The translations under genes and the position numbers were made by a program. Shown one piece after another: positions 16,041-64,000 of a stretch of 64,000 nucleotides of DNA; positions within the stretch are counted from its first letter, which is position 1; every line of letters starts with the position of its first letter. This DNA comes from an uncultured Acidobacteriota bacterium (GTDB taxonomy: Bacteria; Acidobacteriota; Thermoanaerobaculia; Multivoradales; UBA5704): assembly GCA_963792575.1 (NCBI GenBank), contig CAWBWZ010000010.1:136359-200358 (forward strand), read 5' to 3'. A model generated the notes under the pieces. The model had not been told where the DNA came from. It made no database searches and saw nothing but the letters and a program-made list of their open reading frames with translations.

Positions 16041-16288
16041 GAGCGTTCCGGTCGTGGAGGGAGTTTATCCCAGGCCTGAGGGTGGAGGACGGCAAAGCCG
16101 CGACATGTCAGGACATGCCCTTTGTTGCGCCTCTTGACAACACGGCCGGAATTTGGCTATCTTGGGTCTCGGCAGGCATGCGCGGGGGAAACTTCTGGTC
16201 GCTCTGGTAGCGGCAGCCCCTTTGGGGGTGGGATCCTGAAGCCCGGGGCCTGCTTATTCTTCTCCCTCTAGAATTTCGCGTACCCAGC

Positions 16289-17044
16289 TCAATCTTTTAT
16301 CGGCGAGAGATCTCTCGCTAAGCCGCGGCCAGAACTTGAGTCGTGATCCTGGCAGGTCTCACCCTTCCGATACAAGACCGTCTCGAGCATCCTGGCGTAC
16401 CGATCCTCGGTATGGCCGTACTGCGTTGGCTCGACCGCTTTGAAGAATCCGCTGGCCACGGCATCGGCGACCTGAAGACCCATCCTCCGGCCAGCCGTGT
16501 GAGAGTAAATCTGATCGTGGCGGATCGGCGCCCCTTCGAATTGGGGGGTGCGGATCGAATCGATCAAGTCTTCATAGCTCATCCCAGACCGATTCGAAAA
16601 GATGACGTCGGCGGTACCGTCCCCTCCACGCGGCCGGGCATCCCGGCAGAGCAAGCTCACGCGTTCCAACAAGTCGTGTACGGCACGAAAGTAGAGGGCG
16701 CTGCCCTGCCGCAGGTCCTCCGGGTTCGGAACAGACGGTTTATGGACCAGCAAAGTTACGACTCGTAGCGAAGCGCGAGAGATCTCGGCGATGAGGGGGA
16801 GCCGATGCTCGTGGCGAAGATCCCGGAAATGGAGCGGCTTGTGATCAGGCCGGCCCAACATCTTGCGGACACGGTCCACCAGACCCACGACTTCCATGTC
16901 TTCCGCCTTCAGCGTAACGACCGCCGAGAGCACGAACCATTCCGAGCAGCCGCCTCCAAAGGCAAACCCCTCGTCTCCCGACTCGTCGATGTAGACCACG
17001 AAGCTGCAGGGCATGGGGAGGTGAGTATACTTCCGTCCACCCAT
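16289..17044 (-). CDS. DUF3800 domain protein
   Basis: N-terminal VVYIDESGDEGF is the DUF3800 signature. The gene sits in a locally lower-GC patch. The alternative start at 17014 (MPCSFVVYIDESG) would avoid a start-codon overlap with the divergent gene. Confidence 0.6.
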   Translation of the reverse strand: MGGRKYTHLPMPCSFVVYIDESGDEGFAFGGGCSEWFVLSAVVTLKAEDMEVVGLVDRVRKMLGRPDHKPLHFRDLRHEHRLPLIAEISRASLRVVTLLVHKPSVPNPEDLRQGSALYFRAVHDLLERVSLLCRDARPRGGDGTADVIFSNRSGMSYEDLIDSIRTPQFEGAPIRHDQIYSHTAGRRMGLQVADAVASGFFKAVEPTQYGHTEDRYARMLETVLYRKGETCQDHDSSSGRGLARDLSPIKD

Positions 17045-25455: not shown

Positions 25456-26112
25456 CTACACTCCAAGCTGCTTTTTTAATTCCTCCAGCTCCGCCGCCAG
25501 CCGCTCGACGATCTCCTCCAGACGCTGCACCCGCGAGGCGAGGCCCGGCCGTGGGGGCGCGGACGGATCGGCGGCGGCCTCGAAGATCTCCTCGGGCTCC
25601 GGCTCCGGGGACGCCTCTCCCACCAGATGAGTCCAGCGCGCCTCCTTCTGGCCGGGCCGGCGGGGGAGCTCCATCACCAGCGGCTCGTCGTCCGCGGCCA
25701 GGCGGCGGAGCGCCTCCTCGGTCTCCTCCAGCGAGGCGAAGGGGTGAAGGCGCTCGCTGCGGGTGCGCAGCTCGCCCGCCGTCTGCGGACCGCGCAGCAG
25801 CAGGAGCGTGATCAGCGCCTTGCCCGCGCGGTCCAGCCCCCAGCGGCGCACCACGCTCTGCTGCCAGCGCTCCGTGCGCGCCCCCTCCGAGCGCCAGGCG
25901 AGCACCTCCTGCCGCATCCAGTCGAGGGCGGTGACCACCTGGTCCTCGGTGAGCTGCATCACCGGCTCGCGATTGGTCTTCTGGTTGCAGGCGGCGATCA
26001 GGGCATTGATGGTCATCGGCACGGTCTCAGGGTTCGTCTGCTCCTTCTCCAGAAGCGAGCCGAGCACCCGTACCTCCACGGCATCGAGCTTTCTTGGAAT
26101 GCGTGTCGACAT
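25456..26112 (-). CDS. yceH: YceH/DUF480 family protein
   Basis: LDAVEVRVLGSLLEKEQTNPETVPMTINALIAACNQKTNREPVM...LITLLLLRGPQTAGELRTRSERL matches the E. coli YceH pattern. Confidence 0.7.
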   Translation of the reverse strand: MSTRIPRKLDAVEVRVLGSLLEKEQTNPETVPMTINALIAACNQKTNREPVMQLTEDQVVTALDWMRQEVLAWRSEGARTERWQQSVVRRWGLDRAGKALITLLLLRGPQTAGELRTRSERLHPFASLEETEEALRRLAADDEPLVMELPRRPGQKEARWTHLVGEASPEPEPEEIFEAAADPSAPPRPGLASRVQRLEEIVERLAAELEELKKQLGV

Positions 26113-26535
26113 CCCCGGATCTTACCGGATGGCGTCCTCTTGATTTCTGTGTCCGGAGATGCCATAGTCCTTCGAAACACCGAGTGGCACAGAAAAGGTT
26201 GGTAGCGGTTTCAAGAAGATTGCCCTGCCATAGACACATTCCCCCGCAGCAACCGACTCAGGTGCATACCTTGCCAGATACGACGCGGATCGCCCGGACT
26301 CCAAAGTAGCGAGAGGATTCAGCAAACCCGGACAGCGAACCGAGCGCAACACGCTCCCGAAGCGCACTCCTTGCAGCCATGCAACGCCAGATCCCATCGG
26401 GGTCATCCGTAGAGGAGAGAGCCGGCCGGAGTTTCTCGATTGAAGCCAATGATTTGGCCCCCTTGTGGGGTGGAGGATGCCGTCTAAACCGCGGCAAGAA
26501 CAACAACCCTGTTTCATGTTGCAAGGAGCAAACGT

Positions 26536-26742
26536 ATGTCTGAGCAAGGTACCGTGAAGTGGTTCAACGACGCCAAGGGTTATGGTTTCATCGTGCGGGA
26601 GCGCGGCGCGGACGTCTTCGTCCACCACGCCTCGATCATCGCCGAGGGATTCCGCACCCTTGCCGAAGGCGATCGCGTCAGCTTCGACGTGGTCGAGGGC
26701 CCGAAGGGTCTGCAGGCCAAGAACGTCGTCAAAATCTCCTGA
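26536..26742 (+). CDS. cspA: cold-shock protein (CspA family)
   Basis: [19 protein letters not shown]...VFVHHSAI carries the RNP1/RNP2 motifs. It is preceded by a ~410-nt leader. Confidence 0.9.
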
Positions 26743-28745: not shown

Positions 28746-29100
28746 GGGGGTGTACCGGTTTCGACGGGGAACAAAGCGGAGCAGTGGGCGGCGTGTCGAG
28801 CTTCCGCTCGTAACACTGGAAAAATAACTGCGAACGATAACTTCGCCCTCGCGGCCTAAAAAGGGCTCGTGACGTTCCGATGGTGGGCCTTGATTCGCGG
28901 CGCCCACCGGAACGACGCTAAAGCGGATCAATGGGTGCGGCGGCCTTGTGACGCATCCTGATATAAAGCAAGGCTGGCTACCGTGCCAGGTTGGCCTTCT
29001 TCCAGAGCACGGTGGCGAGACTTAGAATAGAGGGATACACACGTAGATGCTCCTGATACGCGTTTCTCGGACGTGGGTTCGACTCCCACCACCTCCACCA
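28746..29100 (+). ncRNA. ssrA: tmRNA (SsrA), tag peptide (A)ANDNFALAA
   Basis: 5' GGGGGTGTACCGGTTTCGACGGGG pairs with 3' ...GGACGTGGGTTCGACTCCCACCACCTCCACCA. The internal tag reading frame GCG AAC GAT AAC TTC GCC CTC GCG GCC TAA is present. Confidence 0.85.
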
Positions 29101-44653: not shown

Positions 44654-44743
44654 TGGCGGAGAGGGTGGGATTCGAACCCACGGACCGGTTGCCCGGTCAA
44701 CGGTTTTCGAGACCGCCCCATTCGACCGCTCTGGCACCTCTCC
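44654..44743 (-). tRNA. tRNA-Ser (anticodon CGA)
   Basis: The reverse complement is GGAGAGGTGCCAGAGCGG...GGCGGT-CTCGAAA-ACCGT...GGTTCGAATCCCACCCTCTCCGCCA, with a long variable arm. Confidence 0.85.
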
Positions 44744-44767: not shown

Positions 44768-44857
44768 TGGCGGAGAGAGTGGGATTCGAACCCACGGTAG
44801 AGTTTCCCCTACACACGCTTTCCAAGCGTGCTCCTTAAGCCACTCGGACATCTCTCC
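44768..44857 (-). tRNA. tRNA-Ser (anticodon GGA)
   Basis: The reverse complement is GGAGAGATGTCCGAGTGG...CACGC-TTGGAAA-GCGTG...GGTTCGAATCCCACTCTCTCCGCCA. Confidence 0.85.
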
Positions 44858-44883: not shown

Positions 44884-45321
44884 TCACGGCCTGCGCCGCA
44901 GCGACGCGAAGAAGCCGCGCAACAGCGCGGCGCTCTCACTCTCCATCACGCCGGCCGTCACTTCCAGCCGGTGGTTCAACCGCGGATCCTGGACCACGTT
45001 GCCCAGGGTGCCGCAGTAGCCGGCCTTCGGATCGGGCGCCCCGTAGACCAGCCGCTCGACGCGGCCGTTCACCAGGGCTCCGGCGCACATGGCGCACGGC
45101 TCGAGGGTCACGTACATCGTGCACCCGGCGAGCCGCCATCCGCCGACGACCGATGCCGCCTGCCGGATCGCCAGGATCTCGGCGTGCGCCAGCGGATCGC
45201 CGTCGATCTCGCGGCGATTGTGGCCTCTCCCCACCACCACCCCATCCCGGACCACCACCGCCCCGATCGGCACTTCGCCGATCCCGGCGGCTCGCCTCGC
45301 CTCGGCGAGGGCCTCCGTCAT
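44884..45321 (-). CDS. tadA: tRNA-specific adenosine(34) deaminase TadA
   Basis: HAEILAI and the TLEPCAMCAGAL zinc-binding CDA motifs. The start is at MTEALAEARRAAGIGEVPIG. Confidence 0.8.
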   Translation of the reverse strand: MTEALAEARRAAGIGEVPIGAVVVRDGVVVGRGHNRREIDGDPLAHAEILAIRQAASVVGGWRLAGCTMYVTLEPCAMCAGALVNGRVERLVYGAPDPKAGYCGTLGNVVQDPRLNHRLEVTAGVMESESAALLRGFFASLRRRP

Positions 45322-45496
45322 CCAGACCTGATCTTCGGGTCTTTCCAAGTAGATGCCGCCGCCCCGCCCAGACGGGAACGCGTATGTTACCCGAGAAGAA
45401 GCTTCTCGCAAAGCGTCCGGCGTTCGACCCACAGTCGAAAAGCCTTGTGCATGGACAGAAATGCTTAGGTTCAAAGGCTGAAAAGTTCCCTACGCT

Positions 45497-45525
45497 TGAC
45501 TTACGCTATGGTGTGGCGAATAATT
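45497..45525 (+). promoter_or_regulatory. candidate promoter TTGACT-N17-AATAAT for the PanA/RelE-like module
   Basis: An AT-rich segment sits 35 bp upstream of ATG 45560. Confidence 0.4.
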
Positions 45526-45559
45526 CCAAAACCGTCCTTGCTAAGCATGGAGGCCCACC

Positions 45560-46102
45560 ATGGCGAATATTCGGCCCAACGACCAGAAACTCCGGGAGCT
45601 GATCCTTTACGTCTCGCGACGGTGTGAGCAGGATCCCAACTTCGGCAAGACCAAGCTGAACAAGATCCTCTTCTACTCCGACTTTATCGCCTATGCCCGG
45701 ACGGGCGAGCCGATCACGGGGCAGGAGTACATGCGGATCGAGCACGGGCCGGGAGCGCGCAGGCTCAAACCAGTCCTGGAAGGCATGCAGGGGCGAGGCG
45801 AAGTGCGGATCAAGAGGGAGAGAAAGATCGACCATGACCAGCAGCGGGTACTGGCCCTTCGCGATCCCCAGCTGGAAGGATTGTTTTCCGATCACCATCT
45901 CGGCATCGTGAACCAGGTCATTCAATACCTGTGGGGGCGGACCAACCGCCAAGTCAGCGCCCTGTCCCATGCCGACATTGGCTGGCAGACGGCTCGCCAC
46001 AAGGAAACGATCCCCTACGAGACAGTGTTCCTCTCCGACCGTCCCCTCACCGAGGCGGAGCTCGAGTACGGTCGGCAACTGGCAGCCGAGCTTGGACGAT
46101 AG
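45560..46102 (+). CDS. Panacea-domain (DUF4065) protein, PanA/SocA-like antitoxin
   Basis: KTKLNKILFYSDFIAYARTGEPITGQEYMRIEHGP matches the Panacea domain core (KLNKLLYF(A)D...G.P). The region is lower in GC and carries its own promoter. Confidence 0.6.
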   Translation: MANIRPNDQKLRELILYVSRRCEQDPNFGKTKLNKILFYSDFIAYARTGEPITGQEYMRIEHGPGARRLKPVLEGMQGRGEVRIKRERKIDHDQQRVLALRDPQLEGLFSDHHLGIVNQVIQYLWGRTNRQVSALSHADIGWQTARHKETIPYETVFLSDRPLTEAELEYGRQLAAELGR

Positions 46103-46118
46103 CCCCCTCCGCGTCCTC

Positions 46119-46373
46119 GTGGAGTCCCTCCGCTTTACGCGAGAGCGGGGGAAGATCGTCTCGGATGTCCGGCGCTTCGACAATGCCATGCGGGCCATCG
46201 ACTTCAGGCTGTGCAGGGATCCCGAGAGCGGCATTCAGATTTCCAAGGGTGGACTGTACGCGACCTGCGTCAGCTTTCCCGACGGAACCACCTTCGCCAT
46301 CTACTATACGTTCGACGACCACGAGGTCGTGCTTGAGTCCGTCCGTCGCGACAGCTCGGTCTCCGATTGGTAG
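46119..46373 (+). CDS. RelE/ParE-superfamily toxin-like protein, partner of the Panacea protein (start uncertain: TTG 46092 or GTG 46119)
   Basis: ...RDPESGIQISKGGLYATCVSFPDGTTFAIYYTFDDHEVVLESVRR follows the RelE/ParE pattern (p.sG.....g.ly..r...g.yRiiY..dd..v.il.v.hR). It overlaps the PanA stop. Confidence 0.5.
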   Translation: MESLRFTRERGKIVSDVRRFDNAMRAIDFRLCRDPESGIQISKGGLYATCVSFPDGTTFAIYYTFDDHEVVLESVRRDSSVSDW

Positions 46374-46497
46374 ACCACTCTTAATGGTCAGGGAATGGGG
46401 ACAACCCCAATCCGGTTGTCGACATAACGGACGGCGGCTGGTCTTCCCAAGTGGTGTTCTTTACTTCCGCGATCCCACGACATAGCATGAGGGCCTT

Positions 46498-46626
46498 GCA
46501 GTGGCCCACGAAGGGTTCGGGTCCTGTGCATCGGCCACTACCGAACCTCGTCAGGCCCGGAAGGGAGCAGCGATAAGGTATGCGGTCGAGTGCCGCAGCT
46601 TCACCGGAACCCTTCGTAGACCACTC
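46498..46626 (+). ncRNA. ffs: SRP RNA (4.5S RNA, ffs), immediately upstream of dnaX as in B. subtilis scr
   Basis: Conserved domain-IV motif GTCAGGCCCGGAAGGGAGCAGC (consensus GUCAGGUCCGGAAGGAAGCAGC). 5' CGAAGGGTTC pairs with 3' GAACCCTTCG to close the long hairpin, and an outer AGTGG/CCACT pairing extends it. Confidence 0.65.
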
Positions 46627-46642
46627 GTCATCTCCCCAGAAT

Positions 46643-48358
46643 CCCATGACGTACCAGGTCCTCGCGCGCAAGTGGCGCCCGCAGAATTTCTCCAGCCTCG
46701 TCGGCCAGGAGCCGATCGTCACGGCTTTGCGCAACGCCCTGCAGGAGGGGCGCATCGCGCAGGCCTATCTCTTCTCCGGCATCCGCGGCGTCGGCAAGAC
46801 GACGGCGGCCCGCGTGCTCGCCAAGGCGCTCAACTGCGAGCGCGGCCCGGCCGCCGACCCCTGCAACGAGTGCATGCCCTGCATCGAGATCACCCGCGGC
46901 TCGGACCTCGACGTCATCGAGGTCGACGCCGCCACCTACTCGAAGGTCGAGCAGGTGCGCGATCTCACCGAGAGCCTGAAGTACGGCCCGGCGCGCAATC
47001 GCTACAAGGTGGTGGTGCTCGACGAGATCCACCGCCTGTCGCGGCAGGCGTTCGACGCCCTGCTCAAGATCGTCGAGGAGCCGCCGCCGCACCTGGTCTT
47101 CATCTTCGCCACCACCGAGATCGACGCCGTGCCGGCGACGATCCTGTCGCGCTGCCAGGAGTTCCACTTCCGGCGCGTGCCGTCGCCGGCCCTCGCGGCG
47201 CACCTGCGGACGATCTGCGAGGCGGAGGCGATCCAGGCGAGCGACACGGCGTTGCGGCTGATCGCCCGCGCCGGCGAGGGGAGCGTGCGCGACTCGGTCG
47301 CCCTGCTCGACCAGCTCGCCACCTTCGGCTCTGGCGCGATCGCCGACGAAGATGCCGTGCGGCTGCTGGGCGGCCTCGACACCGCCCTCTTCCAGACCCT
47401 GATCGCCGGGATCCTCACCGGGGATTCCGCGGCGGTGAGCACCGCCGTCCGCCGGGTTGAGGATGAAGGCTGGGATCCGCGCCACGTCTACGGCCAGTTT
47501 CTCGCCTTCTGCCGCGACGCGCTCCATCTCGCCATGGGCGGCTCGCCCGGGCAGGTGGACCTCCCCGGCGAGGAGGCCCAGGCGCTCGCCACGACCGCCC
47601 GCGCCAGCGGCTACGAGAACCTGCTCCGGCTGATGAACCTGCTGCTGACCAGCGAGCCGATCGTGCGCCGCAGCGACACCGGCGCGCTGGCGGTCGAGAT
47701 CGCCTGGCTGCGCGCCGCCGAGCTGCCGAAGCTCACCCGGGTGGAGGAGATCCTCGCCGGCTCGCTGGCCACCGGGGGCGCCGAGAGTGGGCGGTCCGCG
47801 GCGGCGCCGAGATCCGCTCCGGCGCCCGCGCCCGCTCCTCCACGGAGCCGCCCCCCCGAGCCGCCTCCCCGGGCCGCCGCGCCGCCGCCGCAACAGCAGC
47901 CGGCGCCGAAGCCCGCGGAGACGCCGGTCTGGGTTGAGGCGCAGCCGCCGCGGCCCGCCGCCGCGCCGCCGACGCCAAGCCGGCCGGGCGATCCGATCAC
48001 CGCCTTCAAGGAAGAGGCCGGCAAGCGCAAGCAGAACATCGGCGGCTTCCTCGACGCCGCCGAGGACATCCGCTTCGAGGACGGCCGGGTCACGGTCCTC
48101 TGCCCGAGCGGAGACACCTATCTGCGGACGCGGCTGGACGCCAATCGCGCGATCCTGGCGGAAGCCGCGGCCACGGTCTGGGGTCCGGGGACCCGGCTTG
48201 ATATCCTGGAGAGCCGCAACGCGCCCAAGGCCGCCGCGGAGGCGAAGACCGGGCCGGTCCAGCAGGTGGAGCAGAGCCCGACAGTGCAGGCCGTCCTCGA
48301 TATCTTCAAGGGGCGGATCGAAACGGTGGAAGAGCACGGCAGCTATACGGAGGATTGA
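46643..48358 (+). CDS. dnaX: DNA polymerase III subunits gamma/tau
   Basis: MTYQVLARKWRPQNFSSLVGQEPIV...YLFSGIRGVGKTTAARVLAKALNCE...VVLDEIHRLS. A Pro-rich tau linker is present. Confidence 0.85.
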   Translation, partial: PMTYQVLARKWRPQNFSSLVGQEPIVTALRNALQEGRIAQAYLFSGIRGVGKTTAARVLAKALNCERGPAADPCNECMPCIEITRGSDLDVIEVDAATYSKVEQVRDLTESLKYGPARNRYKVVVLDEIHRLSRQAFDALLKIVEEPPPHLVFIFATTEIDAVPATILSRCQEFHFRRVPSPALAAHLRTICEAEAIQASDTALRLIARAGEGSVRDSVALLDQLATFGSGAIADEDAVRLLGGLDTALFQTLIAGILTGDSAAVSTAVRRVEDEGWDPRHVYGQFLAFCRDALHLAMGGSPGQVDLPGEEAQALATTARASGYENLLRLMNLLLTSEPIVRRSDTGALAVEIAWLRAAELPKLTRVEEILAGSLATGGAESGRSAAAPRSAPAPAPAPPRSRPPEPPPRAAAPPPQQQPAPKPAETPVWVEAQPPRPAAAPPTPSRPGDPITAFKEEAGKRKQNIGGFLDAAEDIRFEDGRVTVLCPSGDTYLRTRLDANRAILAEAAATVWGPGTRLDILESRNAPKAAAEAKTGPVQQVEQSPTVQAVLDIFKGRIETVEEHGSYTED

Positions 48359-52507: not shown

Positions 52508-53573
52508 CCGGCCCGGTCAATCCCGAAGCTTCCAGCGCTCCCAGCACCTTCCCCACCAGCGACGACAGCGGCAGTTTGGCGCGCCCGGCTTCGTCGAAGA
52601 AGCCGGCGGCCATCCCCTCGCGCACTTCCCCACCCCAGGCGAGCTCCGCGCGGTGGACGTCGATCTCCAGATCGCGGTAGGTGATGCCGTGCCGCGCCCC
52701 GGCGATCCGCGGGCCCACGGTCCAGCGGCCGCCGTAGAGCTCGGCCAGGGCGGACTCAGGATCCCCGGGCTCGGGCACGCCGTTCCGCTCGCGGGTGGTC
52801 CATGGGAGCTCCCAGGTGCCGGCGAGGAGGGTGCTGTCCTCGGGGCGGCGGAAGAGGAGCACGCCGGACCCCTCCTCGACCACCGCCACCAGGAGCCGGT
52901 GCCGCTCCCCTTCGCGCTTCACCTTCGGGATCGGATACCGCTCGGGATCCCCCTCGCGCGCCGCCCGGCAGCCGGGGCGCAGGGGACAGAGCAGGCACTT
53001 GGGACGGCGCGGCGAGCAGAGGGTCGCCCCGAGCTCCATCAGGGCCTGGTTGCTGTCGCCGGGGCGGGCCGGATCGAGCAGCTCGGCCGCGGCGGCGAGG
53101 AGCTGGCGGCGCGCGCCGCTCGCTCGCGGGTCCTCGTCCAGGGCGAGACAGCGCGAGAGGACCCGCTCGACGTTGCCGTCCATCACCGGCGCGGCGACCC
53201 CGAAGGCGATGCTCGCCACCGCCGCCGCCGTGTAGGCGCCGATGCCCGGGAGCGCCAGCAACCCCTCGACGGTCGACGGGAACGCCTCCATCCCGGCGAT
53301 CTGGCGGGCGGCCGCGTGGAGCTGGCGCGCCCGCCGGTAGTAGCCGAGCCCGGACCAGAGGGTCAGCACTTCCTCGACCTCGGCCCGCGCCAGATCTCCC
53401 ACGCTGGGAAATCTTTCCAGGAACCGCTTGTAAAAAGGGAGTACTGTCTCTACCCGGGTCTGCTGAAGCATGACCTCGGAGAGCCAGATCTTGTAGGGAT
53501 CGCTCGTTCGCCGCCAGGGGAGGTCCCGGCGGTGCTGGTCGAACCAGGTCAGGAGGTCTTCGGCGCGCCGCAT
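52455..53573 (-). CDS. mutY: A/G-specific adenine DNA glycosylase MutY
   Basis: HhH-GPD with LPGIGAYTAAAVASIAFG, the 4Fe-4S cluster CxxxxxxCxxCxxxxxC (CSPRRPKCLLCPLRPGC) and a NUDIX-like C-terminal domain. Confidence 0.8.
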   Translation of the reverse strand: MRRAEDLLTWFDQHRRDLPWRRTSDPYKIWLSEVMLQQTRVETVLPFYKRFLERFPSVGDLARAEVEEVLTLWSGLGYYRRARQLHAAARQIAGMEAFPSTVEGLLALPGIGAYTAAAVASIAFGVAAPVMDGNVERVLSRCLALDEDPRASGARRQLLAAAAELLDPARPGDSNQALMELGATLCSPRRPKCLLCPLRPGCRAAREGDPERYPIPKVKREGERHRLLVAVVEEGSGVLLFRRPEDSTLLAGTWELPWTTRERNGVPEPGDPESALAELYGGRWTVGPRIAGARHGITYRDLEIDVHRAELAWGGEVREGMAAGFFDEAGRAKLPLSSLVGKVLGALEASGLTGPARPSAAAPARRSPSRRR

Positions 53574-53621
53574 CGCGTCATTCTAGACATGTACAACAGC
53601 CAATTTGGCAGACCAGGCGCC

Positions 53622-53655
53622 GAAAAAGAAAAAGCTCCCAGCTTTCGCTGGGAGC
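53622..53655 (-). terminator. strong intrinsic terminator on the minus strand, just upstream of the mutY start with no annotated gene feeding it
   Basis: Minus strand reads GCTCCCAGC-GAAAG-CTGGGAGC-TTTTTCTTTTT. Confidence 0.5.
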
Positions 53656-54180
53656 CCCCTCCTTCCCGAGGGAAGGAGGAAGTAGGGGGGGAGGCCCCAT
53701 CTCTCCGGGTTGGCTATTGTGGCTGTACCCCTGTATTTAGGGGATTATGGTTGGAGTCAAAGAGGTTGAGACCACTGAGGATCTCGTAAACAGGTAGGGT
53801 AGGTTAGGTTGGTCTGGAACTCTCCCCCTCGTCATTTCCTGTCTCTTATTGTCTGCAACAGTCGTGCCCGGCTTGGCATTCCGCTCCGGGACGGCCACTT
53901 GCTTCCTCAAGAACGTTGGGAGAGGCCGGTTCCCCTCACCCCTCTGCAGCCTAAAAACTCCCCATAAAAAGAGAGGCCCCCTGGCGCTTGGCCGGAGGGC
54001 TTAAGGGGGGAGGTTCCTGTTTCGGGTTGGGTTGGGTGGCTCTACCCCTGATCAGGGGATCAAGGTGGGGCTTTTTGAGGATGAGATCGCGTTAGGATCT
54101 CTAAAAGGATGGGATATAGGTTGGCTGGATGAAACGTCCCCCTCGGTTCCGACTAATTTGTACCCTGCTTTGTCTGCAAG
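53650..54180. repeat. two diverged (~65-70 percent) direct copies of a ~170-bp non-coding element (53660-53840 and 54000-54180) in a 780-bp lower-GC intergenic region
   Basis: Conserved blocks: TAGGGGGGGAGG; CGGGTTGG; GGCT(G/C)TACCCCTG(T)AT...AGGGGAT; AGG(A)T(A)GGG(A)TAGGTTGG(T)CTGGA; CTCCCCCTCG; TTGTCTGCAA. Copy 1 carries a stop where copy 2 has an ORF, so conservation is at the DNA/RNA level. Confidence 0.45.
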
Positions 54181-54352
54181 CCATATGCCAGAGAGAGCCC
54201 GATGCCCGGGAGCCCATGAAATACGCTTTTAAGCGAAGCTCCCCCTGAATGCCGGGCCGGGACCCTCGGCCAATCCTTCTCATTCGTACAAATGCATTCC
54301 TCCGAGTTAGGCATTTCTACATAGGGTCGTCCGCTCCAAGAGGAGATGGGAG

Positions 54353-54847
54353 ATGTCAGAGTTTCGGGAAGTCCGGACTGTCGGCTGGAAGGAGCACCTC
54401 GATCTTCCCGAGCTGGGGATCGTCCGCATGAAGGCCAAGGTGGACACCGGGGCCCGCACCTCGACGCTGCACGTCGATTCCATCCGGCTGCTGGAGGTGC
54501 TCGCGGACGGCTCCGAGCGGGTGGAGCTCGACTTTCGTCCCGACCGCCGCCGGCCGGACTGGCGGGTCCAGGCTGAGGCGCGGGTGCTGCGGCGGATGCG
54601 TGTCGTCGACTCGGGCGGACACCCCGAGGTGCGGCCGGTGATCGAGACGGAGATGGTGCTCGGGCCGGTGCGCAAGAAGATCCTGCTCACGCTGACCAAC
54701 CGCTCCGGCATGCTGTTTCGTATGATCCTCGGCCGGAAGGCCCTGGAGGGGGACTTCCGGGTGGACGTCGCCGGCAAGTACCTGCTTCGCGAATGGCACC
54801 CCCGGAGGTCGCGCAGGACGCACGGGCGAGAGGCGGAGAACCGATGA
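54353..54847 (+). CDS. RimK-associated retropepsin-like aspartic protease (DUF785/ATP-dependent zinc protease family)
   Basis: KAKVDTGARTSTLHV carries the D-T/S-G aspartyl-protease motif. Its position immediately upstream of rimK is typical. Confidence 0.6.
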   Translation: MSEFREVRTVGWKEHLDLPELGIVRMKAKVDTGARTSTLHVDSIRLLEVLADGSERVELDFRPDRRRPDWRVQAEARVLRRMRVVDSGGHPEVRPVIETEMVLGPVRKKILLTLTNRSGMLFRMILGRKALEGDFRVDVAGKYLLREWHPRRSRRTHGREAENR

Positions 54848-56797: not shown

Positions 56798-58509
56798 AGA
56801 AGCTGCTCCTGATCTTCCTGTTCCTGCTCGGCGTGGCGGTGCTGGCGACCGTCGCCGGCATCCTGATGGGCGGGAAGGGGAGCGCCGTGGGCGAGGGCCC
56901 GACAGTCCTCGTCTGGCGCCTCGCCGGACCGGTGCTGGAGCAGCGGGCGCCGCGCCTCCCCTTCAGCGACGACGCGGCGCCGGTCAGCATCGCCGAGCTC
57001 TACCCGGCGCTGCGCGCCGCCCGCCAGGACTCCGGCGTGCGCGGCCTCGCCGTCTACATCCAGGAAGCCGATCTCGGCCTCGCCAAGGCCCAGGAGCTGC
57101 GCCGCCAGATGATGGCCCTGCGGCGGGCCGGCAAGTTCGTCGAGTGCTACCTGGAGACCGCGGGCGAGGGGTCGAACGGCACCCTCGCCTACTACCTCGC
57201 GACCGCCTGCGAGAAGATCTACCTCGCCCCCGCGGGGGACCTCAACCTGCTCGGGCTCTACTCCGAGAGCCGGTTCCTGCGCGGCGCGCTCGACAAGCTC
57301 AAGATCGACCCGAACTTCAACCGCGTCGGCCGCTACAAGAGCGCCGTCGAGTCCTACACCGAGAACCAGTACAGCCCCGAGGCCGAGGAGGCGATCGCCG
57401 CGGTGCTCGACGGCTACTTCGCGCAGATCGTCGCCGCGATCGCCGAGGCGCGCCACAAGAGCGGCGCCGAGGTGCGGGCGCTGATCGACGGCGCCCCCTG
57501 GTCGGCCGAGGAGGCGCTGGCGCGCGGCCTGGTCGACCGGCTCTCCTACCCGGACGAGTTCAAGGACCACCTGGAGAAGCGCGCCGGGCGCAAGCCGTCC
57601 TACGTCGCCGTCGAGGACTATCAGCCCCGTCCGGTCCTCGCCGGCAAGCGGGTGGCCATCGTCTTCGCCCTCGGCACCATCGTCCGCGGCGACGGCGGCT
57701 CGGCCCCCTGGACGCAGGAGACCTACCTCGGCTCGGACGACTTCGCGGACGTGCTGCACGACGTCCGCGACGACCGCTCGATCGCCGCGGTCGTCCTGCG
57801 TATCGACAGCCCCGGCGGCTCAGCTCTGGCCTCCGACTTCATGCTGCGCGAGATCGAGAAGCTCAAGGAGAAGAAGCCGGTCGTGGTCTCGATGTCCGAC
57901 GAGGCCGCCTCGGGCGGCTACTACATCGCCGCCAAGGCCAGCAAGATCGTGGCGGAGCCGGCCACCCTGACCGGTTCGATCGGCATCTTCGGCGGCAAGT
58001 TCGTCACCCGCCGCTTCGAGGAGGAGATCCTCGGGATTGGCCACGCCATCCAGAAGCGGGGAGCCAACGCCGACATCTACTCCTCTCTCCAGCCCTATAC
58101 GCCGCAGCAGGAGGCGCGGATCCAGCAGCTGATGGACCACACCTACCAGACCTTCATCGGCCACGTCGCCACCGGCCGCAGGATGAGCCGTTCGGCCGTC
58201 GAGGGGATCGCCAGCGGCCGGGTCTGGACCGGCGCCGCGGCCCAGAAGATCGGGCTGGTGGACGAGCTCGGCGGGCTCGACCGCGCCGTCGAGATCGCCC
58301 GCCAGCAGGCGCGGATCGGCGCCGGCGAGACGGTCGGCCTCGACTTCTACCCCTCGCCGCCGTCGTGGCTCGACCTCTTCCTGGAGAAACGGCAGCCACG
58401 CCTCCCGACAGCTCTGGCGGAGGTTGTCAAGAGGCTTGAAACCTCCCCTCCCAGGCTGCTGGAACTGCCGCTGGAAGTGTCCAGAATCGCCCGCCCCTTT
58501 CAACCCTAA
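56794..58509 (+). CDS. sppA: signal peptide peptidase SppA, 67K type (S49)
   Basis: N-terminal TM, then two S49 domains with catalytic-Ser context SMSDEAASGGYYIA. Confidence 0.8.
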   Translation: MKKLLLIFLFLLGVAVLATVAGILMGGKGSAVGEGPTVLVWRLAGPVLEQRAPRLPFSDDAAPVSIAELYPALRAARQDSGVRGLAVYIQEADLGLAKAQELRRQMMALRRAGKFVECYLETAGEGSNGTLAYYLATACEKIYLAPAGDLNLLGLYSESRFLRGALDKLKIDPNFNRVGRYKSAVESYTENQYSPEAEEAIAAVLDGYFAQIVAAIAEARHKSGAEVRALIDGAPWSAEEALARGLVDRLSYPDEFKDHLEKRAGRKPSYVAVEDYQPRPVLAGKRVAIVFALGTIVRGDGGSAPWTQETYLGSDDFADVLHDVRDDRSIAAVVLRIDSPGGSALASDFMLREIEKLKEKKPVVVSMSDEAASGGYYIAAKASKIVAEPATLTGSIGIFGGKFVTRRFEEEILGIGHAIQKRGANADIYSSLQPYTPQQEARIQQLMDHTYQTFIGHVATGRRMSRSAVEGIASGRVWTGAAAQKIGLVDELGGLDRAVEIARQQARIGAGETVGLDFYPSPPSWLDLFLEKRQPRLPTALAEVVKRLETSPPRLLELPLEVSRIARPFQP

Positions 58510-58576
58510 TTGTGGTCGTAAATCATTGATTTTTATAAGCTTGCAGAACTTTTCAAAGATTGGTCCCAGGGGGCTT

Positions 58577-58605
58577 GCGGGCGGTCGTGGCTGTGCTATG
58601 ATCTC
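58577..58605 (+). promoter_or_regulatory. candidate dnaA promoter TTGCGG-N16-TATGAT
   Basis: It sits upstream of the DnaA-box cluster and dnaA. Confidence 0.35.
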
Positions 58606-58657
58606 TCAGGTCGCAGTCACCTAAGCCGCTTCAGAAACAATCCTCTTCAAGGCAAGG

Positions 58658-58689
58658 ATTTCCACAGCCTGTGGAAATTGTGTGGAAAA
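58658..58689. promoter_or_regulatory. three DnaA-box-like 9-mers (ATTTCCACA; TGTGGAAAT; TGTGGAAAA) immediately upstream of dnaA
   Basis: Consensus is TTATCCACA, with 7-8/9 matches in alternating orientation within 32 bp. Interpreted as an autoregulatory/incA-like cluster. Confidence 0.5.
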
Positions 58690-58723
58690 AATAGTCTGAT
58701 TATCGTTCGTTGTTAGAGGTCTC

Positions 58724-60029
58724 ATGTCGCAATCCTATTGGTCTCTCCTCCAGAGACAGCTTCAGCAGCAGCTCGATCCCGACGAGTTCGCCACCTGGTT
58801 CCGCCCCTTGCGAGTGGGTGACGAGGATGGCCGCCGGCTGGTGCTGGTGGCTCCCAACTCGCGCTTCCTCCACACGCTGGAGGAGAGCTACCGGCCGATG
58901 GTCGACCGGGCGGTGGCGGGCCTGGCGGACTCCGGCGTTCGAGGTGCTGTTCTCGCTCGACGACATCGAGGTCGCCGCTTCCCCGGAAGAGCCGATCACG
59001 CCGTCGAGCTTCAACCCCAAGTACATGTTCGCCAGCTTCGTCGAGGGCAAGTCCAACGAGTTCGCCCTCGCCGCCGCCAAGCGCGTGGCCGAGAACCCGT
59101 CGCTCTCCTACAACCCGCTCTTCCTCTATGGCGGCGTCGGCCTCGGCAAGACCCATCTGCTGCACGCCATCGGCTCACGAGATCCAGCGCAGCCGGCCGC
59201 AGCTGCGCGTGCTCTACCTGGCCGGCCGAGCAGTTCGTCAACGAGCTGATCAACTCGATCCGCTTCGACCGCATGCCGGCTTTTCGCGAGCGCTACCGCA
59301 CGATCGACGTGCTGATGATCGACGACGTGCAGTTCCTGGCCAACAAGGAGCGGACGCAGGAGGAGTTCTTCCACACCTTCAACACGCTCTACACCAGCCA
59401 GAAGCAGATCATCCTCTCCTCCGACTCCTCGCCGCGGAACATCCCGACGCTGGAGGAACGGCTGCGCAGCCGCTTCGAGTGGGGGCTGATCGCCGACATC
59501 CAGCCGCCGGACCTGGAGACCAAGGTGGCGATCCTGCAGCGCAAGGCCTCGCTCGAGGACATCCAGCTTCCCGAGGAGGTGGCGCGAGTTCATCGCCCAG
59601 CAGGTGAAGTCGAACATCCGCGAGCTCGAGGGGTTGCTGACGCGGGTGATGGCCTTCTCCTCGCTCACCGGCAAGCCGCTCTCGCCGGCGCTCGCCCGCG
59701 AGACGCTCAAGGACATCCTCCCCGAGGAGGGGAAGAAGCCCCGCCGCGGCCGAGATCATCAAGGTCGTGGCCCGGCACTACGACCTCAAGGTCTCCGAGA
59801 TCAAGAGCAAGAGCAACTCGCGGCAGATCGTCATCCCGCGGCAGGTGGCGATGTACCTCTGCAAGCGCGCTGACGGATCTCTCCTACCCGGAGATCGGCA
59901 AACTTTTCAACGACAAGCACCACTCGACGGTCATGTACTGCGGTCGAGACGGGCATCGAAGAAGCGCGACGCCGAGCGATCCGCGACTTCGACCGCACCC
60001 TCAAGGCCTTCGAGCAGCACTTCAAGTAG
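58724..60029 (+). CDS. dnaA: chromosomal replication initiator DnaA, broken by at least six 1-bp indels
   Basis: Pieces lie in three frames: [29 protein letters not shown] (domain I); [21 protein letters not shown] (Walker A); [10 protein letters not shown]; [10 protein letters not shown]; domain [18 protein letters not shown]. Confidence 0.85.
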
Positions 60030-60298
60030 GCCGTGACAGGCGGAAGACCGCCTGCGGGAAAGCCTGTGGAGAGGCGCCGCGACAAGCGTTGTGGAAAATC
60101 TGCGGAATTTTTCTCGGCCTTACGGGCTTTTCCGCACCGCCTCCACAACCCGTCCACAGGTTACCCACAGCCCTGCCGAAGACCTAAGGTTTGCCACTCT
60201 GACAGAGGCTTAGGTCCGGTTTTCCGCATTTCCGCGGCGCCTATCTACTACTACTGCTATGCTATATATTCAGATGTCTTCTAGAGGAGGAAGAGTGA
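60030..60298. other. oriC: candidate oriC: DnaA-box cluster plus AT-rich unwinding element in the dnaA-dnaN intergenic region
   Basis: Boxes TGTGGAGAG (60065), TGTGGAAAA (60090), CTCCACAAC (60141), TCCACAGG (60154), TTACCCACA (60161, 8/9) and TTTTCCGCA (60220). These are followed by the 45-bp AT-rich CTATCTACTACTACTGCTATGCTATATATTCAGATG containing (TAC)3. Confidence 0.6.
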
Positions 60299-61399
60299 AT
60301 GGAGATCCGCGTCACCCGTAGCGAGTTCCTGGGCGAGCTGGCCCCGATGCAGGGCATCGTCGAGCGCAAGACCACCATCCCGGTCCTCTCGCACCTGCTG
60401 CTGACGGCGCGCGGGGACAAGCTCCACCTGGCGGCCACCGACCTCGACGTCTCGCTCACCTCCTGGTGCGAAGCGGAGGTCAAGCGCGAGGGCGGCATCG
60501 CCGTCCAGGCCAAGAAGCTGGTGGAGATCATCCGCTCGCTGACCGGCGAAGAGGTGCTGCTCGTCCAGGAAGAGCCGCGCGTGCTCTCCATCCGCGCCGG
60601 CAAGTCGCGCTTCAAGATCCACGGCCTGGCGCCGGACGATTTCCCGACCCTCCCCGACGGTCGAGGACGGGCGCCGGGTCGACATCCCGTTCGCCGACTT
60701 CCGCCGCATGGTCGGCCAAGATCCTCTTCGCCGTCTCGGCCGAGGAGTCCCGCTTCCAGTTGAACGGCGCCCTGCTGAAGCTCAAGGACGGCTCGCTGGA
60801 GATGGTGGCGACCGACGGCCACCGCCTCGCCCTGGTCGAGGGGGGGCTCGAGAGCGCCGGCGGCGAGGACTCCGTCCTGGTGCCGCGCAAGGCCCTCCAG
60901 GAGCTGCAGCGCTTCGAGGGGGAGGGCAAGCTCTCCTACGGCCGCGGCGAGCACCACCTCTCCTTCGGCCTCGGCCGGCGGGAGCTGATCTGCCGCATCC
61001 TCGAGGGGACCTTCCCGGACTACGAGCGGGTGATCGCCAAGGACAACGACAAGAAGGTCCTGCTTCGACCGCAAGAACCTGGTCGACGCCGTGCAGCGCG
61101 CCGCGCTGATGACCGGCGACCGGGCGCGCGCCGTGCGCCTGCAGTTCGCGCCCGACCAGGTGGTGATCTCGGCCGTCAACTCCGACCTCGGCGAGGCGAT
61201 CGAGGAGGTCGCCTGCGACTACGACGGTCCCGAGTTCCGGGTGGGGATCAACCCCGACTACCTGCGCGAGTTCCTCTCCGCCGTCGAGACCGAGAAGGTC
61301 CGGCTGGAGCTCAAGGACGAGAATACGCAGTGCGTCGGCTATCCGCAGGACGGGCCCGACACCCGGTATCTCTGCGTGATCATGCCGATGCGAATCTGA
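60299..61399 (+). CDS. dnaN: DNA polymerase III beta sliding clamp; several 1-bp indels
   Basis: MEIRVTRSEFLGELAPMQGIVERKTTIPVLSHLLL...; middle LNGALLKLKDGSLEMVATDGHRLAL; C-terminal ...PDYLREFLSAVETEKVRLELKDENTQCVGYP...VIMPMRI. GAGGAGG RBS. Confidence 0.85.
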
Positions 61400-61440: not shown

Positions 61441-62512
61441 ATGCTCACCCACCTCACCGCCCGCGACTTCCGCAACCTGGAGCCCCTCTCCTGGCGCCCT
61501 TCGGCGGGGTCCCATCTCCTGCTGGGCGGCAACGGAGCCGGCAAGACGAGCCTTCTGGAGGCCGTCTACGCGCTGGCCACCACCCGCAGCTTCCGCGCCT
61601 CCCAGATCGGCGACTGCGCCCGGCACGGCGCCGGCTCCTTCCACATTCAGGGGGAGATCGAGACCGACCGCCGCTCCACCCTGGAAGTAGGCTGGATGGA
61701 GGGGCAGCGGGTGCGGGCGCTCAACGGCAAGGTGACGCCGCTCGCCGAGCACCTGGCCGTGCTCCCGGTGGTGGCCTGGACGGCCGCGGCGGAGGCCGAG
61801 GTGCTGGTGGGGGCTCCCAAGGCGCGCCGCCGCTTCATGGATCGCGGCGTCGTGGGAATCCGGCCCGTGGCCCTGGAAGTCCTCGGCCGCTACCGCGAGG
61901 CCCTGCGGCAGAAACGGGGGCTCCTGCTCTCCGACGGCGCCGGCATCGAGATCTGGAACGAGATGCTGGCCGCCACCGCCGCGGACGTCATCGCCCAGCG
62001 CCATCGCTACGTCGAGCTCCTCAAGGTCCAGCTCGCCCAGGTCCTCGACGCTTCCGGGCTCCAGTTTCCCGCCGATCGAGCTGCGCTACCGCCCCTCGCC
62101 CGCCAGCGGCCTCGAAGGGCAGACGGTCATCGCCGACGCTCTCGACCGCATCGCCGACCGCGAGCGCCGGCGCCAGACGCCTCTCCTCGGACCTCACCGC
62201 GACGAGCTGGAGATCCTCTGGGGGGGGCATGAGATCCGGCGCGTGGCCTCGGCCGGCGAGCGCAAGGCCCTCTCCCTGATGCTCCTGGCCGCCCACGGAA
62301 AGGTCATGGAGGAAGCCGGGAGGCCCCCCCTCTACATGCTCGACGACATGGACGCCGAGCTGGCGCCGCCGACCGTGACCGCCGTCTGGGGGATCTTCCG
62401 TGGCGCGGCCCAGCTCTTCGCCACCTCCAACCGCCCGCAGGTCTGGCTGACCCTGGACGTCGGCGACGATCTGGGAGATGGAGCGGGGCGAGCTGAGGCT
62501 CCTCTCCGAGTA
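61441..62512 (+). CDS. recF: DNA replication and repair protein RecF; frameshifted
   Basis: LLLGGNGAGKTSLLEAVY Walker A, the signature SAGERKALSLMLLAA, and Walker B LYMLDDMDAELA in a second frame. Confidence 0.8.
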
Positions 62513-62689
62513 GGAAGCCGGCGGGAAACCGGGAATCCGCTTCGGGGAATCTTTACCCTTCGTTTTTTTGTTGAAGTGGTACCCGAGGGTCCCGCCCGGC
62601 GCTGTTTACGGGGCCCTTCAAGGCTGGCCAAAATCGGGCCTAAGCTGTTGAAATTTCAGCGCTAATAAGGCTCGTAAGAAGGCTTCTTT

Positions 62690-62699
62690 CGTGGTATAA
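62690..62699 (+). promoter_or_regulatory. extended -10 promoter element TGGTATAAT for gyrB
   Basis: TG-n-TATAAT at 62691-62699. The palindrome AAGAAGGCTTCTT overlaps the -35 region. Confidence 0.4.
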
Positions 62700-62770
62700 T
62701 TTTCACATTCTTGGACCCCCCTTCCGCGGGGTTTCCACCCAAGCTCAGGGATAGAACGGAGAATCCTGTT

Positions 62771-64000
<1,230 letters not shown>

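Follow-up and report, generated by a model that had tools for sequence, protein, structure and literature searches.

A two-gene cassette of a Panacea gene and a small gene with a predicted RelE/ParE fold between tadA and ffs in an acidobacterial genome

In a stretch of 64,000 nucleotides (nt) from an uncultured Acidobacteriota bacterium (GenBank assembly GCA_963792575.1, contig CAWBWZ010000010.1, positions 136,359 to 200,358 of the forward strand), hereafter called the window, a cassette of about 1 kb lies between tadA and ffs. It contains two genes, the first encoding a protein with a Panacea domain and the second a small protein that is predicted to adopt a RelE/ParE fold, and we read it, with some reserve, as a toxin-antitoxin (TA) module. 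Positions are counted from the first nucleotide of the window, and related loci from other genomes and metagenomes are given by their L numbers. The cassette is made up of the following parts:

45399-46390, no strand: accessory insert of about 1 kb with the promoter and the two genes, delimited by comparison with empty sites and by GC content
45496-45524, + strand: sigma-70-like promoter TTGACT-N17-AATAAT, agreeing with the consensus at 10 of 12 positions
45549-45553, + strand: ribosome-binding site GGAGG, 6 nt before the ATG of the Panacea gene
45560-46102, + strand: panA-like gene of 180 amino acids (aa), with a match to PF13274
46092-46373, + strand: small partner gene (putative panT) of 93 aa with a TTG start, the modelled product having a RelE/ParE fold

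The product of the first gene, PanA, carries GKTKLNKILFYSDF and is a stand-alone Panacea/DUF4065 protein without an additional N-terminal domain. The initial annotation of the window, which was made from the sequence without database searches, had already recognized the domain in this protein, and the match is unambiguous: residues 33-143 cover the full PF13274 (SocA_Panacea) model (1-113/113) with 52.9 bits at a cutoff of 25.7 (E=8.2e-14), and 403 homologs were found at E<=1e-5. Beyond the Pfam domain follows a conserved C-terminal extension (residues 144-180, with I151-P152-Y153 invariant), which appears as an extended segment and one helix next to the Panacea core in the AlphaFold (AF2) model (confidence score pLDDT 92). 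The best and only solved structure that resembles this model is that of DarTG from M. tuberculosis (7yk3, chains B and D; E=7.7e-4, template-modelling (TM) score 0.49), and weak matches to hidden Markov models (HMMs) of DarG cover the same region of PanA. The part of DarG that is matched is presumably its toxin-binding C-terminal domain. The model also gave weak matches to PadR/MarR-like folds, while PADLOC and PHROGs returned for the Panacea protein just weak DarG/PtuA matches and one family of unknown function. Compared with its ortholog in the Thermoanaerobaculia metagenome-assembled genome (MAG) L007, the gene has a ratio of nonsynonymous to synonymous substitution rates (dN/dS) of 0.09. 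The PanA protein of the window is basic, with an isoelectric point (pI) of 9.3.

The small gene occupies the frame ending at 46373, which carries GGLYATCVSFPDGTTFAIYYTFDDHEVVLESVRR. Initially its start had been set at the GTG at 46119, giving a protein of 84 aa. We place it at the TTG at 46092, because a TTG at -11 is shared by the relatives L007, L008, L009, L012, L019 and L038, and because residue R7, conserved in 94% of the small family, is encoded 5' of 46119. From this TTG the protein has 93 aa and its gene overlaps the end of panA by 11 nt; the overlap of the two genes that had been described is therefore real for the start at 46092 and does not exist for the one at 46119. A longer version from the ATG at 45969 (134 aa) was rejected, as the homologs are shorter (about 90 aa) and their alignment begins at the TTG start. 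A database look-up of the annotated 84-aa product gave no record.

Relatives of the small protein are difficult to detect by ordinary means. A word-indexed search returned only four close homologs, and an exhaustive profile search of 1.84 billion cluster representatives retrieved 213 relatives at E<=1e-3, nearly all of about 90 aa. The public copies found are all unnamed or labelled 'hypothetical protein', and nearly all of them come from MAGs or metagenomes. Searches of plasmid and phage collections by tblastn found nothing, and PADLOC and PHROGs gave no match for the small protein. Since the small gene has a dN/dS of 0.17 relative to its L007 ortholog and its product has 213 profile relatives, the open reading frame (ORF) is more than a product of chance. 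Purifying selection acts on both genes.

The pairing of the two genes was assessed in 80 genome loci that encode Panacea relatives of 38-92% identity. According to their record titles, these loci span more than ten phyla, namely Acidobacteriota, Chloroflexota, Verrucomicrobiota, Planctomycetota, Proteobacteria and Gemmatimonadota, and further Binatota, Nitrospirota, Omnitrophota, Zixibacteria, Hydrogenedentota, Patescibacteria and Armatimonadota. In 68 of these loci, and in 75 after one profile iteration, the Panacea gene is directly followed by a same-strand match to the small-family HMM, which leaves about five of the 80 without a detectable partner. The junctions between the two genes mostly measure between -38 and +20 nt. 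Reciprocally, a Panacea gene was found directly upstream of the gene for a small-family protein in all seven look-ups (7/7). Over 67 pairs, the two proteins diverge in a correlated manner (Mantel r=0.65, p=0.001), the small protein being the faster-evolving one, and the pairs occur in differing genomic contexts. To select TA-like pairs, Kurata et al. asked for a small partner gene that is conserved in at least two species, no more than 100 nt away and encoded on the same strand. The pair passes this filter, and its layout is that of a type II TA operon: bicistronic, coupled, provided with its own promoter, and patchy or accessory in occurrence. As signs that would speak against the pairing, the initial annotation had named a lack of HMM matches for either gene, or a downstream ORF that is non-toxic and not conserved next to Panacea homologues. 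A significant HMM match is indeed missing, but for the small gene alone, and this gene is strongly conserved beside Panacea homologues.

Some of the related pairs differ from that of the window in their surroundings. A third ORF of 50-62 aa overlaps or closely follows the small gene at L171:1797-1982, L173:2779-2964, L176:2094-2246 and L177:2804-2992; this ORF is absent from the window. Several distant pairs adjoin IS1595 transposases. In six acidobacteriotal loci (L019, L021, L024, L026, L032 and L079), a more distant pair (41-68% identity) is located about 2.2 kb downstream of dnaX. In one of them (L024:2495-3308) the order is dnaX-ybaB-recR-aminotransferase-PanA-small-ATPase, which is the neighbourhood of the window, but on the opposite side of dnaX.

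The AlphaFold model of the small protein, built from 130 sequences (pLDDT 79.9), has a beta-alpha-alpha-beta4 topology, with a strand at residues 8-11, helices at 13-22 and 26-42, and strands at 48-51, 55-61, 67-74 and 78-87. Foldseek comparison of this model with the PDB placed toxins of the RelE/ParE superfamily at all ranks from 1 to 23. The top match is HigB2 (5ja8; E=2e-4, TM 0.68, 24-27% identity), and other top matches are M. tuberculosis RelE1, the RelE domain of Cami1, ParE2, YafQ, HP0894, T. thermophilus RelE and BrnT. By this topology and these ranks, membership of the RelE/ParE superfamily is supported at the level of the modelled fold; membership of a sequence family was not found. 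Among 86 relatives of the small family scanned, 16 match PF05016 (ParE_toxin) weakly, the best with E=3.3e-4. The RelE/ParE-like nature proposed for the partner in the initial annotation is thus borne out by the modelled fold and by some of the relatives, and not by a profile match of the sequence itself.

The residues conserved in the small family are R7, F15, D30, P44, G47, Y72 and V79. In HigB2, the important residues are Arg51, Arg64 (right before 65-IIYY-68), Tyr82 and Lys84, and the surface is positively charged. The strand of the small family that matches the IIYY of HigB2 reads F68-A-I-Y-Y. Conserved counterparts of HigB2 Arg51/Arg64/Tyr82/Lys84 or of RelE K52/K54/R61/R81/Y87 do not occur in the small family, its C-terminal tail is acidic and variable, and the protein of the window has a pI of 5.0 and a net charge of -3. 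Both hallmarks of a RelE-type messenger RNA nuclease (mRNase), i.e., the catalytic basic, Tyr or His residues and a positive surface for binding RNA or the ribosome, are therefore missing, and to judge from its residues and charge the small protein is not a RelE-type mRNase. A RelE/ParE fold without RelE catalytic residues is what is expected of ParE, with which the small protein is consistent, although this feature is not specific to ParE.

The genes and RNAs around the cassette are those that had been annotated initially:

44654-44743 and 44768-44857, - strand: two tRNA-Ser genes, left of tadA
44884-45321, - strand: tadA (tRNA adenosine deaminase), from the ORF listing, outside the module and divergent from it
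46460-46488: ffs promoter TTTACT-N17-TAGCAT, conserved in the window, L007, L090 and L091
46515-46613, + strand: ffs, the small signal recognition particle (SRP) RNA, outside the module (Rfam RF00169, 68.2 bits)
from 46646: dnaX, right of ffs

The same layout is present in L007, where the order is gidB-jag-yidC-yidD-rnpA-rpmH-tRNA-tadA, PanA-small, ffs-dnaX, and where the tadA ortholog contains the dCMP_cyt_deam_1 domain. The tadA of the window is 83-90% identical to those of L007, L090 and L091. The metagenome contigs L090 and L091, which share 83-88% identity with the window in tadA and about 95% in the SRP RNA, have tadA next to ffs in divergent orientation and show no trace of either cassette gene. 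Homology of the flanks to L090/L091 in BLAST ends at position 45398 of the window; a weak similarity returns at about 46392 and the homology proper at 46456, and in L091 only 78 nt separate the end points of the homology. Because the flank homology breaks around the cassette in this way, the promoter and the two genes constitute an accessory block of about 1 kb, and the insertion between tadA and ffs that had been proposed from the window sequence is confirmed by these empty sites. The block is also AT-richer than its surroundings, as noted before: the GC content of 45399-46390 is 0.591 vs 0.678 for the whole window, a value as low being reached by only 2.9% of the equal-sized windows, and the GC content at third codon positions (GC3) is 0.78-0.83 in the cassette genes vs 0.90-0.93 in tadA, dnaX and yidC.

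The promoter assigned to the cassette in the initial annotation holds as well. TTGACT-N17-AATAAT is the sole sigma-70-like site in the 1.4 kb from 45300 to 46700, where 0.3 are expected by chance. In a three-way alignment of the window, L007 and L010, the -35 box and its flanking sequence (CGCTTGACTTACGC) are invariant, the -10 box is kept as nATAnT, and the TGGAGG at the ribosome-binding site of the Panacea gene is invariant. The promoter of the neighbouring ffs agrees with the consensus at 8 of 12 positions only and is thus overlooked by a simple promoter scan.

At the same site, the MAG L010 (gp7 Acidobacteria) retains Panacea in intact form (92% identity at the protein level, dN/dS of about 0.1), and about 240 bp of the small gene are cleanly deleted (L010:2180-2270, corresponding to 46138-46364 of the window), so that the first 15 codons or so and the last two remain. 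Loss of the small gene with retention of Panacea is the direction of loss that a TA module tolerates.

The proximity of two tRNA-Ser genes had suggested an integration hotspot, an idea that we do not follow, since tadA lies between the tRNA genes and the insert, the insert holds just the two genes and neither an integrase nor a tRNA fragment, and a search for att-like or target-site direct repeats around it returned only short matches at chance level. A similarity of 19 nt (84% identity) between the end of the small ORF (46367-46385) and the 3' end of the SRP RNA (46613-46631) was dismissed, as it is absent from L007 and probably due to chance. In relatives, the spacer between tadA and ffs or between tadA and PanA contains GC-rich tandem-like repeats (L090:60-700, L007:5045-5440), which are absent from the window.

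PanAT systems, in which a Panacea antitoxin (PanA) is combined with a toxin (PanT), were defined by Kurata et al. (2022; PMC8832971), and ParE is among the CDD matches of their predicted PanTs. Dataset S1 of that study lists PanT clusters found by HHpred to be similar to HigB-2, YoeB, ParE and RelE (T14, T28, T59), and complexes of PanA and PanT as well as neutralisation were shown for other toxin folds (PMC8832971). The pairing of Panacea with a RelE/ParE-like partner had thus already been predicted, though not validated (Kurata et al., 2022), and the cassette adds a new example of it. Stand-alone Panacea can neutralise a toxin directly, and this task can instead be taken over by a C-terminal add-on such as Phd-C (Ernits et al., 2023; PMC10440598). 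Against this background, the cassette is probably, if with considerable room for doubt, a chromosomal and horizontally acquired type II TA module of the PanAT class with a ParE-like partner. The small protein is called a putative toxin here by analogy. That the antitoxin gene would come first, as the initial annotation had pointed out, is correct for this locus; as an argument it carries less, because 78% of the Panacea pairs in NetFlax are toxin-first and antitoxin-first pairs are the minority (PMC10440598).

Several findings weigh against the reading as a TA module. The small protein has no match in Pfam or NCBIfam at E<=1, and comparison of the small-family profile with PDB sequences retrieved no RelE/ParE chain, just TPR and coiled-coil noise. 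Conserved Lys, Arg or His residues are lacking on the sheet and in the C-terminal tail in the small-family alignment, the frequency of these residues on the sheet being <=0.39. Position 68, which is equated with Arg64 of HigB2 by motif and not by structural superposition, is L/V/F/I in about 99% of the small family (Lys, Arg or His at a frequency of 0.01). The family as a whole is acidic (median pI 4.87, 94% below 7, median net charge -5), and an acidic small partner together with a basic PanA is the reverse of the usual charge pattern of toxin and antitoxin. In L001-L004, where Panacea is 76% identical to that of the window, the small gene, though intact, lies inverted and runs towards Panacea (L001:4611-4886, - strand), and L050:3041-3352 (- strand) probably has the same layout; the inverted gene is therefore transcriptionally uncoupled from its supposed antidote. 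No convincing inverted repeats flank the inverted gene in L001. Finally, none of the six 'mRNase' PanTs in Table S1 of Kurata et al. was validated, four being not toxic and one uncloneable, and the T1 'mRNase' toxin of C. cadaveris was toxic, but its PanA did not neutralise it (PMC8832971).

If the cassette works as a PanAT module, the single sigma-70 promoter would give rise to a bicistronic message, on which translation of the small gene would be coupled to that of panA by the 11-nt overlap and the weak TTG start. PanA would bind the small protein directly and thereby keep it inactive, through either the globular Panacea core or the C-terminal extension 144-180, which may be the counterpart of the tails with which RelB, ParD and Phd wrap around their toxins. 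Upon depletion or triggering of PanA, the small protein would be freed and growth inhibited. Its action may be ParE-like and non-nucleolytic, by binding to a protein target such as DNA gyrase, which we consider likelier than ribosome-dependent cleavage of mRNA because the catalytic residues are absent and the family is acidic.

Among the alternatives, the one that survives best, although we regard it as clearly less probable than a TA module, is that of a conserved two-protein complex that does not arrest growth, in which the acidic RelE/ParE-fold protein serves Panacea as a non-toxic regulatory partner, adaptor or decoy, for instance in sensing or defence. It would account for the acidity of the small family and its lack of RelE/HigB2 catalytic residues, and for the inversion (L001-L004) or deletion (L010) of the small gene while Panacea stays. 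The four of six predicted mRNase-type PanTs that were not toxic (PMC8832971) point the same way, as does the proposal by Ernits et al. that Panacea is mainly a sensor (PMC10440598). However, the overlapping operon, the patchy accessory spread, the IS1595 neighbours and the TA-rich neighbourhoods are typical of TA modules, and nearly all proteins described with the RelE/ParE fold to date are toxins. Moreover, ParE toxins reportedly also lack the catalytic residues of RelE. There is also a lesser chance that the small proteins are not classical RelE or ParE toxins but a new, Pfam-less family of effectors or regulators that occurs in more than ten phyla in obligate association with one Panacea clade, with a new target or as part of a sensor-effector pair (e.g., in phage defence) in place of a simple poison and its antidote.

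An unlikely reading is that of a PanAT module with a toxin that, like HigB2 or RelE, cleaves mRNA on the ribosome, but by a divergent active site. HigB2 of V. cholerae is indeed the closest match in fold, its IIYY strand being matched by AIYY, the active sites of the RelE family are notoriously variable, and several such PanT clusters were labelled mRNases by Kurata et al. (PMC8832971). What speaks against it is that the HigB2/RelE catalytic residues have no conserved counterpart, with few Lys, Arg or His residues on the sheet, and that the surface by which such enzymes bind the A site is strongly positive, whereas the family carries the median negative charge given above. A reversal or sharing of the roles, in which the basic Panacea protein with its winged-helix-like subdomain is harmful or binds DNA and the acidic small protein is its inhibitor, appears very improbable. 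The charges resemble those of an antitoxin/toxin pair in reverse, the PanA model has weak PadR/MarR-like fold matches, and Table S1 of Kurata et al. reports toxicity in E. coli for three of the PanAs themselves (PMC8832971). A Panacea toxin would be hard to reconcile, however, with L010, where Panacea stays intact under purifying selection after loss of the small gene, or with the approximately five of 80 loci that are partnerless after iteration, and Panacea is the antitoxin in all validated cases (PMC8832971, PMC10440598). That the downstream ORF is a spurious frame next to Panacea by chance, as might be feared in high-GC DNA with its many long ORFs in all frames and for a protein without a Pfam match, is already refuted by the conservation of the gene, with its 213 homologs, dN/dS of 0.17, confident AF2 fold and retention downstream of Panacea in 68-75 of the 80 genomes.

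The known systems closest to the cassette are the PanAT systems themselves. Like them, it combines a stand-alone Panacea protein with a small partner encoded less than 100 nt away on the same strand, an arrangement kept in many species; the model gives the partner a RelE/ParE-type fold, and the cassette is accessory and spread over phyla. Cluster T1 is large, antitoxin-first, with small overlaps, and occurs in many phyla including Acidobacteria and Chloroflexi (PMC8832971); the cassette shares with it the antitoxin-first order and the small overlaps (-1 to -17 nt). In contrast to the predicted mRNase-type PanTs, the family in the window is acidic and devoid of RelE catalytic residues. A comparison of the small family with the published PanT clusters (T1, T8 and others) by names and accessions did not establish membership in any of them.

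ParDE and PaaA2-ParE2 resemble the cassette in the toxin fold (ParE2, 5cw7, TM 0.66), in the length of about 90-100 aa and in the antitoxin-first operon; relatives of the small protein match PF05016 ParE_toxin, and the RelE catalytic residues are absent. Unlike in these systems, a Panacea protein takes the place of the ribbon-helix-helix ParD or PaaA-type antitoxin, and the small protein of the window lacks a significant sequence match to the ParE family. With HigBA2/RelBE the cassette shares the best structural match (HigB2, 5ja8) and the motif I/A-I-Y-Y in strand beta3, but not the conserved catalytic Arg/Lys/Tyr, the basic surface, which here is acidic, the gene order or the type of antitoxin. 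DarTG is similar in that chains B and D of 7yk3 resemble the PanA model; it differs in its macrodomain and its DarT-type ADP-ribosyltransferase, neither of which is present here, and the fold of the partner is unrelated. SocAB of Caulobacter also has an antitoxin with a Panacea domain, which is the source of the Pfam name SocA_Panacea. There, SocA serves as the adaptor through which ClpXP degrades SocB, a protein that blocks the beta-clamp. The partner in the cassette, in contrast, is unrelated to SocB, and there is no sign of an adaptor-type neutralisation.

Of the antitoxin domains that combine with many unrelated toxins, Panacea is the best known, and its predicted RelE/ParE-type partners are those that have so far failed experimental validation. 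The pair described here belongs to a large, co-inherited Panacea-partner family in more than ten phyla, of which the partner is unannotated in every public database searched. With an occupied site, empty sites, a deletion and an inversion of the small gene, the locus comes with natural controls, which makes it a clean candidate for asking if the partner is toxic, what its target is, and whether Panacea or its tail neutralises it. For the host genome, the cassette would be a routine accessory TA module.

Elsewhere in the window, positions 16171-16259 (+ strand) match Rfam RF02967 (DUF3800-VII RNA) with 78 bits, inside a patch of low GC content at 16101-16700. A tmRNA gene at 28746-29100 is followed by the stretch with the lowest GC content of the window (minimum about 0.52), which extends to about 30500 and could be an island integrated at ssrA. 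Further patches with a GC content below 0.60 (window mean 0.68) are found at 1-1200, 25901-26700, 53401-54500, 58301-59000, 59801-60400 and 62401-63100, and these may be other accessory insertions.

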